Of a DNA stretch of 64,000 nt, positions 239 to 59,964 are shown one piece after another; the stretch's first letter is position 1; every line of letters starts with the position of its first letter. The stretch lies in IMG/VR virus record IMGVR_UViG_2648501839_000008; one strand, 5' to 3'. A program made the translations under genes and the position numbers. Under the pieces are notes generated by a model. The model was not told the origin of the DNA. It saw nothing but the letters and a program-made list of their open reading frames with translations, and ran no database searches. This stretch comes from a virus (lineage: Duplodnaviria; Heunggongvirae; Uroviricota; Caudoviricetes).

Positions 239-333
239 GCGTTTTTCCTTTGTTTTCTAATGAGCTTTCAACTTCTTATATAAATATACCATCAAATATC
301 GTAAGTGATTACTTATCATTAAGGCTATTCTAA

Positions 334-2442
334 TCACTTCAAAATGATACGAGATAGTTCAGTAACTACAGATGAACCAAGACTATCAACGCTCGTTACT
401 AGGGCATGGTTTGCGTAAAATCTCTCCGGTGCGTCAGTCATGATGCCAATTGCCATCAAATCAATGTCAGTCTGCGTTTCAATTTGCTTCGCAACCGAAC
501 GCAAATGAGCGTCAAAACCTCTCCCAACAGCCCACGGCGCGCCATCGCTTAGAACAAGCATGATCTTCTTGTCCTCCATGCGACCAGAAAATAACGATGC
601 AAGGCTGGCTATGCTTTCACCATCCACGTTATTAAGAAGTGGGAATGTGTAGCCTACGCACCCCATACGTGAGCGAACTTCGCGAGAATTTGCCTTTTCA
701 TTCCAATTTTTGATGATAGGTAGCATTAAAGATTCAAAGCGAGAGAACTCATACTTGATTGCCTTAAGCTCTCCTGCTGCCATATGACTACCAAATGTTG
801 TGAAGCCGGTGATAATGTTGGGAACATTTATTCGATCAAGCGCATCGGCGATGGTATATGCACTTGCAAGAGCCAGTTTAATCGTTTCGCCGCTCATTGA
901 ACCTGATAAATCAATCACTTGTTGAACACAGGCGTTAACGGCCTTAGATTCTTCTTTTTTACGAAACACGCGATCATCATTCATTGCTAATCTGTAGATA
1001 CTAGAACCATGAATGCGCCCCCGACGCTGGCCCGGTATAAACTGAACTCTGTTTCTGCTTGCAATTGCACGCTCCAGGTCTTTTGCCAGCGTCGACGAAA
1101 CACCTGACGAAAGATGCTTTTCAATATATTTGTCGAAGAGTTGGTTGCCTTCAGGAACGATGCGATAACGGCTGATTGGATATCCACCTAAATCAATATC
1201 GGAGAATGTTTTAATAAGCCGTTTGATATGGGCTTCTGCCTGATCAATCGAACCGATGAAGTCGTATGAGCGATTGTATGGCCTGTATTCGCTTTTCGAG
1301 CTTTCTGTTAACTCGCTTTTAATCGTTTCGGATAGTGCATCTTCTGTCATGCCTCCGACTTCATCTTCCATGCTATCAAGCTCCTCTAAAGCCTCTTCCA
1401 GACTCATTTTGGACGGAGTGGGAATGTCTGAAGAGCCGTCTTCTGCCGTTTTTCTTTTTTCGTGATCCGAGGTAGTTGCTTCTGTCGTCGCGCTATTGGA
1501 AGTATCAGAATCTAATACCTCTTTATCATTTTTTGTATCATCGAATATTGTTTCTGATGATTCAGAATTATCTGAATCATCACTATCGTTATCATCATGT
1601 ATGTACTTACCGTGTGACCCATCATCTATAGATATGTGGTTATCTAGCATCTCATGTGTCTTGTGATCTTCATTGTCTTCATTACTTTCTCCAGAGGAAT
1701 CCGCTTGGTCAGCGTCTGAAGGATCGGGAGTTTTTCCCGGAGCTGACTCCTTACCTTTGCTTTCACTTTCTGTGTCTTTGAGGATCTTAGCTATGGTCGC
1801 AGCCACCTTTAAACAATCCTCGGTGCAAGACATGTTACGCACGGCCACATCGATACCATGTTCTTTTAATAATGAAATTGGTTTCTCAATGACAGGCCAG
1901 TATTCATCCATGAAATCTACGAACGGTGCTTGGCCATCCCAGGCTCTTACAACCGGACAGAGAAAGAAGTTTAGAAAAAGCGCGCGCTGATCTTTGCCAC
2001 AATAAGTAATAGCCTCTGAAGCCTTTGGTTTAAAGACTTTTTCGATTATCAGGCGCTGAGTTGCCATCAGATTACGTCTTGTTCCGTTAAAGACCTGCCC
2101 CATTTTTCGCTCGATGAACACGTCTTCTAAGGCATTCCATAGTGACCAGGAAGGGACGTGTCCTTTTTCTCTCATTTTGTTGGACACATGAATATCGGTA
2201 AACAAAATGTGAGCAACTTCATGATCTAGAAATCCGCGTACTGCATTCATCAATGCCGGTGTTGCGTTATCTGGGATTGATGGGATGTTTACGAGAATTG
2301 GCTCTCCATCATCGTTATAGCGTACATAAGCGTCGTCCCCTCGTTCTGCAACAGGGATGTTTTTACCTGAAAGGAGAGCGACTACTCGTTTTACACTGTC
2401 ACGGAAGTCCTGAACCTCTTTGATGGAACGTTTTTTGGACAT
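334..2442 (-). CDS. von Willebrand factor A domain protein, CobT-like (acidic Asp/Ser-rich linker, C-terminal vWA with MIDAS)
   Basis: C-terminal DLSGSMSG (DxSxS MIDAS motif); long acidic low-complexity linker; N-terminal HEVAH (HExxH-like); AGGA-type RBS upstream of start. Confidence 0.65.
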   Translation of the reverse strand: MSKKRSIKEVQDFRDSVKRVVALLSGKNIPVAERGDDAYVRYNDDGEPILVNIPSIPDNATPALMNAVRGFLDHEVAHILFTDIHVSNKMREKGHVPSWSLWNALEDVFIERKMGQVFNGTRRNLMATQRLIIEKVFKPKASEAITYCGKDQRALFLNFFLCPVVRAWDGQAPFVDFMDEYWPVIEKPISLLKEHGIDVAVRNMSCTEDCLKVAATIAKILKDTESESKGKESAPGKTPDPSDADQADSSGESNEDNEDHKTHEMLDNHISIDDGSHGKYIHDDNDSDDSDNSESSETIFDDTKNDKEVLDSDTSNSATTEATTSDHEKRKTAEDGSSDIPTPSKMSLEEALEELDSMEDEVGGMTEDALSETIKSELTESSKSEYRPYNRSYDFIGSIDQAEAHIKRLIKTFSDIDLGGYPISRYRIVPEGNQLFDKYIEKHLSSGVSSTLAKDLERAIASRNRVQFIPGQRRGRIHGSSIYRLAMNDDRVFRKKEESKAVNACVQQVIDLSGSMSGETIKLALASAYTIADALDRINVPNIITGFTTFGSHMAAGELKAIKYEFSRFESLMLPIIKNWNEKANSREVRSRMGCVGYTFPLLNNVDGESIASLASLFSGRMEDKKIMLVLSDGAPWAVGRGFDAHLRSVAKQIETQTDIDLMAIGIMTDAPERFYANHALVTSVDSLGSSVVTELSRIILK

Positions 2443-2540
2443 GGCTAATCCTTTGTTATGAAAACAAATTATTTACTAGTGTGTTTAATGTAGCACTGCG
2501 CGAACAGGGAACTAAGCCATTCGCGCAGGTAGAAGAGGGA

Positions 2541-2753
2541 TTAACAGGTTCTGACGGCTAAAGACCCGGAGCCGGTATTGATAAGCGTGAAGCGTTTGTT
2601 GTTAAGTTCGAATATAAAGCCAGTTGTGTCATTCACACCAACCTCAATCTGCTCATTCGGTAGCTCGGTGAGGATGTCAGCTACACACTCATCAGCTAAT
2701 TTTTGTACGTGTCCGATCTCAAGAGCTATTAGGCTGGAAATAGTGGTGTTCAT
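2541..2753 (-). CDS. Hypothetical small protein
   Basis: 70-aa ORF in intergenic gap; no recognisable motif. Confidence 0.3.
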   Translation of the reverse strand: MNTTISSLIALEIGHVQKLADECVADILTELPNEQIEVGVNDTTGFIFELNNKRFTLINTGSGSLAVRTC

Positions 2754-2930
2754 TCAATCAATCCATTCTTACTTATACTATTGTAAGGAATACTACTAAA
2801 ATTTATATCAATACTGAATACATCCATATTAGATGCAAGTTAATTTTCTTACCTATTTGGGGCTAGTTTTTCACCATGCATTGGTCTTCGTCCGGTCTTT
2901 AAAGTGCCTGCCGAAAAAAATGATAATAGC

Positions 2931-2973
2931 TTTACAACCCTAACCTTTGATGTAATATCGGTAAGCACTTACC
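2931..2973 (+). promoter_or_regulatory. Sigma70-like promoter (TTTACA-16 bp-TAATAT) followed by palindrome GGTAAGCACTTACC, upstream of HTH regulator gene
   Basis: Hexamers read directly at 2931-2936 and 2953-2958; palindrome at 2960-2973 shares GTAAG/CTTAC half-sites with dispersed motif family O1. Confidence 0.35.
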
Positions 2974-3004
2974 AGAGAGAATTGAACGCGCAAAGGTTGT
3001 AACA

Positions 3005-3391
3005 ATGTCTGACAACAAGATTGAATTTATAGAAAGTCGCTACGCTGCTTTTATCGCAGGGTTGATTGAATCCTCACCTATGAGCCAGGCCCAGATAGCC
3101 AAAACAATTGGGTATAAAAACGCCAACAACCTTTCTTTAATTAAAAGCGGCAAAATTCCTTTGCCTATCGATAAGGTTCGTCCGCTGGCGCTGGCACTGG
3201 GTATTGAGCCAAGTCGTCTTATGATGATGGTGCTGGAAGAACGCCAACCCGAACTCGCAGCATTTTTATACAAAGAAGGCACTGCTCCTCTTAACGAGGA
3301 CGAAAAACAGGTTCTTGCTGCATATAACGAGCGATTCGGTAAAGAGAAAGGCGCATCACAAAAGGTTGTTGAGGCCATAAAGTCTCTATGA
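3005..3391 (+). CDS. HTH (XRE/Cro-CI-like) transcriptional regulator
   Basis: Helix-turn-helix-like segment SQAQIAKTIGYKNANNLSLIKSGK; 128 aa; convergent with recombinase gene. Confidence 0.65.
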   Translation: MSDNKIEFIESRYAAFIAGLIESSPMSQAQIAKTIGYKNANNLSLIKSGKIPLPIDKVRPLALALGIEPSRLMMMVLEERQPELAAFLYKEGTAPLNEDEKQVLAAYNERFGKEKGASQKVVEAIKSL

Positions 3392-58847: not shown

Positions 58848-58867
58848 ATAACAAATTGTTTTCTTGT
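58848..58867. promoter_or_regulatory. O2 palindromic operator
   Basis: aataacaaattgttttcttg. Confidence 0.45.
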
Positions 58868-59032
58868 TTGTGTTAATTATCGTTGTACGAATAAGGCGTC
58901 AAAGTGGAAAGTTGCGGTAGCCGGACGGGAACAGGTGGGTTTGTCGGTTGCCTGGAGGTAAGAGGTTGGTGTTTTTAGCCTGAGGGAAGCAGGATGGTCA
59001 TTTAAGGCCACCAGCATTGGTGACCTTATTCT

Positions 59033-59320
59033 TCAGTGGAGCAGACCGATGTCGATGGTATCCCCTGAATCATCCACACGGATCATCAGCATGGCAAAGG
59101 CGTTTAGTGGATAGCTTGCGTGCCATTCAGGGAAGCGGTCATCTCGCATGAAGTCGGCAATGTCGTAAACGCATCCCTCAAAGTGGAAGAATCGCGTGCT
59201 TACCTGCTCATCATAATCCACATGATCCATTTCTTGCTGTTCTGTTTCCGGCAAGTCCAGCCATGATTCGAGGAATACATTTTGTGCTTTGGTGGTAATG
59301 GTGAAATCAGTCATGAGCAT
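59033..59320 (-). CDS. Hypothetical acidic small protein
   Basis: 95-aa ORF; paralogous upstream region. Confidence 0.45.
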   Translation of the reverse strand: MLMTDFTITTKAQNVFLESWLDLPETEQQEMDHVDYDEQVSTRFFHFEGCVYDIADFMRDDRFPEWHASYPLNAFAMLMIRVDDSGDTIDIGLLH

Positions 59321-59331
59321 ATCCTCACTGC

Positions 59332-59351
59332 GTAAACATGTTGTTTTCTTG
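59332..59351. promoter_or_regulatory. O2 palindromic operator
   Basis: gtaaacatgttgttttcttg. Confidence 0.45.
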
Positions 59352-59442
59352 TTGTTGTAATTATCGCAGCGAGATAAAGGCAGAAAACAAATTGTTATCG
59401 GGCATAAGAAAATGGCGCGGTTTACGCGCCATTCAAAGAGGA

Positions 59443-59838
59443 TTAAGCGAATACGCTTTCAGGGATTAAGGTGCCGGCAGGAATGCCAGAGGTAATGCGC
59501 AGACCGTACTGGCCAATCCAGGTGGTGCTGGTGTTCAGGCTGGAGGCGAATACGGTGTTAACCATATTCATCATGGTTTCAAACACCTCTTCATCAACCT
59601 GGCGGAAGTAGTTCTCGATTTTCAGCAGCAGCGGGTCAGTTGCATCGAGAATGGACTGGTATTGAGTCGCGTACTCGCCGCCGGAGGCATCACCTTTACG
59701 CACGATCGTACTGGCCTGGACTTCGGCACCAGTTTCGGTGTTGTACGTAACAACGGTGATTTTTGCCACATTCTTACCTTCGGCGGTTTCAGAGGCATAG
59801 TAAACATCAACTGTCAGTTTTTCGCGTTTAACGGTCAT
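59443..59838 (-). CDS. Hypothetical protein
   Basis: Start placed at internal Met (MTVKREKL...) with GGAGAG RBS; ORF-track start 59904 would include the O1 motif. Confidence 0.45.
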   Translation of the reverse strand: MTVKREKLTVDVYYASETAEGKNVAKITVVTYNTETGAEVQASTIVRKGDASGGEYATQYQSILDATDPLLLKIENYFRQVDEEVFETMMNMVNTVFASSLNTSTTWIGQYGLRITSGIPAGTLIPESVFA

Positions 59839-59964
59839 TTCACTCTCCGTAGTGTATTGGTTATTTTTATATTCTATGATCGTAAGTATGTACTTACAAT
59901 ACAAAAAAGCCCCGTAAGGATGGCGGGGCTGTCGTACTGTCGACTAATTACCACTTGCACATTA

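Follow-up and report, generated by a model that had tools for sequence, protein, structure and literature searches.

The short gaps between the genes of an SSU5-like phage-plasmid carry a dispersed family of palindromes, here called O1, which we read as a genome-wide operator network for a dimeric regulator encoded by the element itself and probably acting as a repressor, a reading to which we assign a probability of about one half. The family was analysed in a stretch of 64,000 nucleotides, IMG/VR virus record IMGVR_UViG_2648501839_000008 (Caudoviricetes), referred to below as the window. Megablast of positions 39000-47000 gave Escherichia phage Cyrano (OV696614), which is the pLF82 phage-plasmid of host E. 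coli LF82, at 98.4% identity and Salmonella phage SSU5 at 82%, and the two window proteins tested were 100% identical to their counterparts in 'Escherichia phage CMS-2020a' (CP053388). Judged by these relatives, the window is therefore ~60% of an SSU5-like phage-plasmid, with the majority of its genes on the minus strand. We propose that each genome offers ~25 double-stranded DNA sites, each an 18-22 bp palindrome with the arms TArGTA and TACyTA six bases apart, to a two-fold symmetric DNA-binding protein of the element. The sites fill the short gaps among lytic-cycle genes (structural, lysis, replication, recombination and nucleotide metabolism) and not the plasmid-maintenance promoters, and would place the co-oriented lytic array under one regulator, the bound protein occluding an adjacent promoter at some sites and sitting between genes at others, like the 'stoperators' of L5-type phages. 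The favoured binder is an XRE-type repressor (3005-3391), which would regulate its own gene through a core palindrome at its predicted transcription start; the main alternative is p88, a small winged-helix protein (49864-50130).

O1 is a genuine dispersed palindrome family, far above chance. The literal pattern GTAAGTANNTACTTAC has two exact matches (40765 and 59882) against 0.00 expected, and allowing up to two mismatches gives 11 matches at nine loci against 0.09 expected. In the 22-mer register, leave-one-out weight-matrix scores were 15-27 bits for 12 sites, and the maximum in 50 shuffles was ~12 on average with a top value of 17.5, so that the enrichment implied by the original prediction, made from the letters of the window, holds by both counts and scores. 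A symmetric matrix trained on Cyrano only gave scores of >15 in the window at exactly the 14 loci of that prediction, and every start listed there falls within a matrix-recovered 22-mer. After realignment, the O1 unit is a symmetric palindrome of 22-28 bp, (AAT)GATArGTA-AGTACT-TACyTATC(ATT), and the best alignment of the sites on the minus (gene) strand reads GATAAGTA-N6-TACyTAyn. The motif had been given as GTAAGTA-N2-TACTTAC, which is the inner part of this palindrome but read two bases out of register; as a register for all sites it was rejected, fitting a subset only, whereas the N6 register aligns every site. The shifted reading is possible because the consensus GATAAGTAAGTACTTACTTATC holds the tetramers AAGT AAGT ACTT ACTT, and iterated refinement of the matrix was dropped since it drifted onto copies shifted by this 4-bp internal periodicity. 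The string ACTTATCATT (the 'TTATCATT' tail), said to follow several sites, does so at four of the fourteen and forms the outer portion of the palindrome. At 44339..44360 the register is less secure (leave-one-out score of 4.5). No description of the O1 motif was found in the searchable literature.

The intergenic placement that had been claimed for the family was upheld: non-coding DNA makes up 10.4% of the window yet holds 13 of the 14 sites (binomial p = 2e-12). The window sites sit amid co-directional minus-strand genes, usually from -5 to +30 nt past the stop codon of the upstream gene and 9-98 nt before the next start (Table 1).

Table 1. O1 sites, weaker relatives of the motif, and proteins considered as binders in the window
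Feature	Position	Strand	Context	Score
O1	296..317		Between cobT-like and cobS-like genes; minus strand GATAAGTA ATCACT TACGATAT; TATATT 7 nt downstream	18.3
O1	4988..5009		Glutaredoxin gene starts 42 nt downstream	29.8
O1	7976..7997		Perfect 8-bp arms GATAAGTA-TTTACT-TACTTATC; past hyp39, upstream of tRNA cluster; TATAAG 7 nt downstream	33.3
O1	11498..11519		40 nt upstream of hyp34 homologue; then TGTAAGAAT (extended -10-like)	25.7
O1	16068..16089		11 nt upstream of hyp31 homologue; heads helicase/primase block	25.1
O1	21982..22003		Upstream of holin gene; overlaps stop codon of preceding open reading frame	22.4
O1	27349..27370		Between tail J-like and tail fibre genes; then GC hairpin and Shine-Dalgarno	27.3
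O1	34262..34283		Between tail M and tail L genes; then GC hairpin	20.8
O1	40764..40785		Between tail completion and tail tube genes; includes perfect 16-bp GTAAGTATATACTTAC	23.6
O1	44339..44360		7 nt past major capsid gene; then intrinsic-terminator-like hairpin	19.0
O1	46255..46276		Within 3' end of portal gene, 98 nt ahead of next gene	29.3
O1	47762..47783		Overlaps terL stop codon; 9 nt ahead of portal start	24.9
O1	53054..53075		82-bp divergent region between parB-like operon (-, last gene p88) and uvsW operon (+)	21.6
O1	59881..59902		Past intrinsic terminator; TAGAAT 5 nt downstream; upstream of hyp107 homologue	15.6
Core-only O1 relative	2956..2977		GGTAAGCACTTACC at 2960-2973, 1 nt past -10 of XRE/HTH gene promoter	~10 bits
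Weak half-palindromic site	10621..10642		1 nt ahead of hyp35 homologue	11.6, at null limit
XRE-type HTH protein	3005-3391	+	128 aa; CYRAN_45 homologue; candidate binder and prophage repressor
p88, winged-helix protein	49864-50130	-	88 aa; CYRAN_123 homologue, phrog_900; immediately precedes terS; alternative binder candidate
FljA-family protein ('repressor of phase-1 flagellin')	55459-55980	+	PF03614, E = 2.5e-84; on 831 SSU5-type plasmids including Y. pestis pMT1

The family recurs in four relatives at an overall density of 23-27 sites per ~100 kb. Cyrano has ~24-27 sites, SSU5 has 26 and Klebsiella pJN2-26 has 25 in 100 kb, with ~0.1 expected in each, and a divergent Klebsiella plasmid with proteins ~60% identical has 25 against ~0.1 expected. 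The positions are syntenic (downstream of terL and of the capsid gene, at the portal 3' end, ahead of the genes for tail tube, tail L, tail fibre and holin, and in the parB/uvsW divergent region), and this synteny holds while the flanking DNA diverges. The site at 46255..46276 is identical at 22 of 22 positions in Cyrano and SSU5 and at 21 of 22 in pJN2-26, that at 47762..47783 is syntenic even in a relative of ~50% protein identity, and that at 53054..53075 is syntenic in all four genomes. Viral contig 2713896750_000003, whose structural proteins are ~25-57% (mostly 25-55%) identical, has O1 at the terL/portal junction and elsewhere, with the arms CTTAAGTA in place of GATAAGTA, and a Pectobacterium plasmid retains TAnGTA-N6-TACnTA arms around the centre TTTAAA; the differences in these two fall at arm positions 1-2 and 9-11. 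Since the arms are conserved while the centre changes, the invariant part of O1 is the two hexamer arms, with their centres twelve bases apart. Genes of replication, recombination and nucleotide metabolism flank about half of the O1 sites in the full genomes (helicase block, helicase/primase, primase/hyp34, uvsY/ssb, recA-like, sbcCD (sbcD), RNR, thyX, dam and RNase H junctions), and the full-genome site lists contain none at the promoters of parA, repA or the toxin-antitoxin genes kacAT and hicAB.

Near-consensus copies in E. coli are confined to such elements. Among 5,426 complete E. coli genomes, the 30-mer consensus gave 856 near-matches in 234 genomes; every one lies on a plasmid of ~105-115 kb, and no chromosome has any. 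Plasmid-only copies together with lineage-specific centres point to an element-encoded binder. The conservation of O1 across elements of Escherichia, Salmonella and Klebsiella could instead reflect sites of a host transcription factor or nucleoid protein exploited by the element, but the same chromosomal count of zero and a centre that differs among element lineages speak against this explanation, which we disfavour as extremely unlikely.

A palindrome in a transcribed gap may act in the RNA, and O1 could be an intercistronic mRNA hairpin serving processing, stability or control of translation, with the FljA-family protein encoded in the window as a possible binding partner. O1 does lie in transcribed sense-strand gaps, often beside ribosome-binding sites, some sites fold to -6 to -8 kcal/mol, and FljA has been described as blocking translation of fliC mRNA (PMC2652032). 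The arms themselves argue otherwise. For 71 sites pooled from three genomes, with left arms paired with the right arms of other sites as the null, 607 Watson-Crick complementary arm positions were observed against 610.7 ± 10 in the shuffled sets, so that deviations of the arms from the consensus are not compensated, and G-U pairs (91) were hardly commoner than A-C pairs (78), so that the sense strand is not favoured. In three of four genomes the two half-sites showed no asymmetry with respect to transcription, the one closer to the upstream gene not being systematically better. RNA folding of the 14 window sites gave 0 to -8.3 kcal/mol, with four essentially unfolded (-1.8 or weaker) and the remaining ten at -3.9 to -8.3, and an Rfam scan of the window returned tRNAs only, with no family at O1 sites. 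Compensatory pairing, a stable stem and a U run, as in structured RNAs or intrinsic terminators, are thus not features of O1. Uncompensated, strand-neutral arms and unfolded sites are the signature expected of a double-stranded DNA site for a two-fold symmetric protein and not of a hairpin. The Salmonella fliC leader, moreover, has no such palindrome and the FljA-like protein is merely 34% identical in a plasmid with the same O1 arms, and we disfavour an RNA element as very unlikely.

That low identity also led us to reject the FljA-family protein as a direct O1 binder, as did its RNA-binding appearance: it has a sub-threshold Hfq match in its C-terminal part and looks like a tandem Sm-like RNA binder, and no PDB structure is related to it by sequence. 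A link between FljA and O1 was likewise dropped, as the Salmonella and Citrobacter fliC leaders have only TTGATAAGGAA, without the palindrome. The window also holds a second dispersed family, (A/G)AGAAAACAA-NN-TGTTT (palindrome AAACAA-NN-TTGTTT), 15-35 nt upstream of start codons (first base on the minus strand at 60788, 60304, 59350, 58865, 49749, 49724, 19064 and 15308), with two copies before terS and others before parA and the helicase gene. It has the 8-mer CAAGTTGT and, after it, an AAGGA ribosome-binding site in common with the Salmonella/Citrobacter fliC leader, a match noticed post hoc, and because FljA represses fliC mRNA, this second family may be an RNA target of the protein at 55459-55980.

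Two functions had been suggested for O1, a late-gene activator site or an operator class. The first was not borne out, as about half of the sites are in non-late modules and there is no gene-side -10 at a fixed distance; the second is supported, O1 having the properties of a protein-binding operator family. The distance from O1 to the next start codon spans 0-159 nt overall, some sites ending 0-16 nt from the start and some abutting the ribosome-binding site or the start codon itself. At a few sites, TGTAAGAAT, TATAAG or TAGAAT follows 4-8 nt downstream, which would put the centre of the palindrome near -31 of an extended -10 promoter there. The -10-like hexamers at the edges (TATCAT) belong to the palindrome and are found on the sense side of 33 of 96 sites and on the antisense side of 45. 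With such hexamers on both sides and variable start distances, the O1 sites have no single fixed promoter geometry. Separate intrinsic (GC) terminators adjoin only some sites. GC hairpins also stand just downstream of the O1 sites that precede the genes for tail tube, tail L and tail fibre (~40742-40757, 34229-34252 and 27328-27348, minus strand); their pairing is kept by compensatory substitutions among the window element, Cyrano, SSU5 and Klebsiella pJN2-26, and they are probably RNA stabilisers in 5' untranslated regions or between cistrons.

Expression could be examined in the per-gene RNA-seq data for Cyrano in its LF82 lysogen published by Misson et al. (PMC9928086). In the lysogen most lytic genes are at background, while expression is seen for CYRAN_45 (XRE), repA, parA with its partner and the toxin-antitoxin genes (PMC9928086), with CYRAN_45 ~10-fold above background. 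In condition B6, the 21 co-directional motif junctions had a mean step of -1.1 log2 against +0.44 elsewhere (p = 0.002), and large falls occurred at the tail M/L, hyp34/35 and ASCH/sbcD junctions, where a simple terminator scan gave nothing. In the macrophage 6 h samples, transcripts rose 6-13 fold across CYRAN_11 to 12, 55 to 56 and 59 to 60, which shows that regulated promoters are present at or beside some O1 sites (those ahead of the tail tube gene, of CYRAN_56 and of CYRAN_60).

These rises, with p88 mRNA at its maximum in the same samples, would also be expected if O1 were an activator box of phage-specific promoters in the style of phage P1 Lpa, with p88 binding the box and recruiting the host RNA polymerase to a weak -10 at its edge to turn the lytic operons on. 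The P1 late promoters (AAGTkACTT, 4 nt and TAnnnT in the annotated record) have AAGT/ACTT half-sites in common with the O1 core, and theirs too is a small palindromic box upstream of many operons of a phage-plasmid. p88 is MarR-like and its gene immediately precedes terS, which encodes the small terminase, just as lpa in P1 is placed right before LPpac and pacA, and the TGTAAGAAT or TATAAG found 4-8 nt past some sites would suit such promoters. The P1 box, however, is a 9-bp AAGTnACTT with a TAnnnT -10 located 4 nt beyond it, whereas the O1 core AAGTACTT lies inside a longer palindrome and has no consistent directional -10, the edge hexamers being no rarer on the antisense than on the sense side. 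Several sites so close to the start codon (0-16 nt) leave no room for a transcription start and a ribosome-binding site, and O1 is not confined to late genes, being found also in the replication and nucleotide-metabolism modules, while the P1 boxes serve late operons only. Neither does Lpa show sequence similarity to any Cyrano protein (BLASTP against p88, E = 6.4; phmmer against all Cyrano proteins, nothing under the inclusion threshold). An activator box is on this balance an unlikely explanation. A phage-specific -10 in the style of the T4 late promoters (GATAAGTA versus TATAAATA) was rejected, as the motif is symmetric and the Cyrano annotation lists no sigma factor or RNA polymerase.

Being palindromic, dispersed and element-specific, O1 might also be bound for purposes other than transcription by a partition, compaction or recombination/packaging protein, comparable to parS, KorB, Noc and N15 centromere sites. 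In every genome one O1 site precedes the first parB-like gene by 16 nt, and two proteins with ParB_N domains (51689-53037) are related to Spo0J, Noc and KorB. Both of these, though, have no recognisable helix-turn-helix (HTH) past the N domain, their alignment to Spo0J reaching only residue 154, and their C-terminal halves are acidic. The ParA partner (17985-18344) is ribbon-helix-helix-like with an invariant strand, yet there is no O1 upstream of parA, where a different repeat is found, and this protein was set aside as the binder for the same reason. Avoidance of coding sequence and placement at junctions in every lytic module are more typical of expression control, and we consider a partition-type role quite unlikely. 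The ribbon-helix-helix-like 92-aa protein linked to uvsW (54682-54960) was also rejected as a binder, since its putative DNA-contacting positions vary.

The operon of the ParB-like proteins (50140-53037, minus strand) encodes, besides these two, two ABC-type ATPases and is followed by p88, with the terminase genes directly downstream. One of the ATPases is annotated in Cyrano as a fusion to an acetyltransferase domain, and the ATPases are the best-conserved proteins of the element (identity of 96-99% to those of SSU5 and Klebsiella and of 80-86% to those of the divergent plasmid).

One element-encoded regulator acting on many operators scattered round a plasmid is known from the P1 C1 operators, annotated in the P1 record at ref, mat, ssb, lpa and other genes, and from the KorB OB sites of RK2, which are palindromic and number 12. 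The likeness is one of logic only. The C1 operators are asymmetric 17-mers overlapping sigma-70 promoters, KorB belongs to the ParB family and possesses an HTH, of which the ParB-like proteins here show none, and the sequences of both are unrelated to O1.

If O1 is such an operator network, two small proteins are the candidates for binding it. The XRE protein has a weak HTH_19 match in Pfam, under the curated cut-off, and its gene was given as the master repressor by Misson et al. (PMC9928086). The gene is found in ~865 SSU5-type plasmids, among them pMT1 of Y. pestis and pHCM2-like plasmids of Salmonella, and the recognition helix NANNLSLIKSG of the protein is kept at 45-58% overall identity. 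The HTH gene was originally suggested to be possibly autoregulated through a short variant, GGTAAGCACTTACC, overlapping its promoter. The variant is present, and in ~30 distinct upstream regions (variants 56-100% identical, with diverging flanks) the promoter TTTACA-17-TAATAT is followed at once by (G/A)GTAAG(C/T)ACTTACC, the conserved geometry that autoregulation would predict; as a member of the O1 family it reaches only ~10 bits. Autoregulation through this site, which matches the inner 14 bp, is plausible. p88, which has no match in Pfam but a predicted MarR-like winged-helix fold, is an equally conserved candidate beside the XRE protein. Its AlphaFold2 (AF2) model (pLDDT of 82) has Foldseek TM-scores of 0.70-0.76 to the MarR-family proteins MepR, MarR and ZitR, it is 78-89% identical across four genomes, and its recognition helix is near-invariant even in Pectobacterium. 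p88 is the last gene of the operon that starts at the O1 site at 53054-53075, and in the lysogen its mRNA is at background in overnight culture and ~10-fold over that of its operon neighbours in other conditions. Covariation of binder and motif gave no discrimination between the two, both recognition helices being conserved in contig 2713896750_000003 and in Pectobacterium.

Several observations weigh against a repressor network, or against the XRE protein as its binder. The downward step at motif junctions loses significance once the comparison is limited to junctions where the upstream gene is expressed and the gap measures 25 nt or more. At the Cyrano junction orthologous to 11498..11519, the transcript level rises 4-10 fold, so that a promoter upstream of hyp34 and next to O1 is active in the lysogen, which is unexpected for a tight repressor site. 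The XRE protein's own site lacks the TA of the best-conserved arm positions, matching the inner 14 bp only, and the Pectobacterium XRE promoter bears the hexamers in everted order and not as O1. Finally, SSU5 holds 26 intact sites without an XRE gene, which also fits a core-encoded binder such as p88. An argument from this absence against the HTH protein as binder was rejected, as the gene is in ~865 plasmids and is absent only from the free phage. SSU5 looks like a deletion derivative, paralleling mycobacteriophage D29, which PMC5712189 describes as a lytic deletion derivative of a temperate parent.

The closest functional analogue of the proposed operator network would be the stoperators of cluster A mycobacteriophages with L5 gp71-type repressors, which are repressor sites present in many copies across the phage genome (26 in TipsytheTRex) at which the repressor also terminates elongation (PMC9283540). 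O1 resembles them in having ~25 copies per genome in the intergenic gaps of early-type as well as late modules, and SSU5, which retains its sites without the XRE gene, would parallel D29. A stoperator, however, is asymmetric and 13 bp long, and its repressor binds as a monomer through two DNA-binding domains, whereas O1 is symmetric and 18-22 bp long. Brown et al. are said to have reported in 1997 that stoperators lie in one orientation relative to transcription, and O1, in contrast, shows no orientation bias. No repressor with a stoperator domain was identified here, the candidates having been set against no gp71 sequence. A possible counterpart of the elongation block, the falls at O1 junctions, does not differ from matched junctions once upstream expression is controlled. 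The bolder version of our proposal, that the whole co-oriented lytic array is silenced by one small repressor on ~25 intergenic palindromes acting as a stoperator-like roadblock network, is accordingly put forward as a tentative and rather doubtful one. If true, such a network would have arisen independently of the mycobacteriophage system and with a dimeric instead of a monomeric repressor.

The window otherwise reads, in gene order, cobS/cobT, an integrase-XRE module, tRNAs, ligase, primase, helicase, parA and lysis genes, followed by tail, head and terminase genes, the parB-like operon, uvsW and small unknown genes. The tRNA cluster has four genes (6575-7228, minus strand; Ser-TGA, Thr-TGT, Tyr-GTA and Asn-GTT), and three tRNA genes are annotated in Cyrano and one in SSU5. 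The 16-18 kb bin has a GC content of 0.32 against ~0.46 in the rest of the window and contains a 567-aa open reading frame (16239-17942, minus strand) without a Cyrano counterpart; given its low GC and absence from Cyrano, it is probably acquired cargo. The open reading frames at 5120-6382 and 11639-12676 (both plus strand) also have no Cyrano counterpart.

An AT-rich near-palindrome of ~60 bp, GACCTGCTTCCGTATAT...AATAAGTTACTTATT...ATATACAGAAGCAGGTC, is present in two copies (~16172-16230 and 49783-49841). One copy lies between p88 and terS, and the deposited Cyrano record starts inside this element; the other is at the CYRAN_30/31 junction, where lysogen transcripts drop ~200-fold. It could be a strong bidirectional terminator, an insulator or a packaging-related site. 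Outside the window, the gene annotated as CYRAN_81 (44 aa; Cyrano 78657-78791) is 98% conserved in SSU5 and ~12-fold over background in the lysogen, and just upstream of it are hairpins that differ in sequence between genomes while keeping their pairing. Instead of a protein, the locus possibly encodes a small RNA.

Phage-plasmids of the SSU5 type are widespread. pHCM2 of S. Typhi and pMT1 of Y. pestis belong to them, as do common plasmids of Klebsiella and E. coli, and the associated genes appear in >800 records of plasmids from Klebsiella, Escherichia, Enterobacter, Yersinia pestis and Salmonella. Resistance genes are also borne by phage-plasmids of this type (PMC9600943). We found no description of their lysis-lysogeny control in the searchable literature, and a conserved regulon of ~25 sites would give a concrete handle on it, with two small candidate proteins and predicted places of binding. 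O1 can also serve as a sequence signature for recognising SSU5-type elements, marking them in 234 of the 5,426 complete E. coli genomes, and it opens a route to the question of how ~80 co-oriented lytic genes are held silent in a plasmid-prophage.

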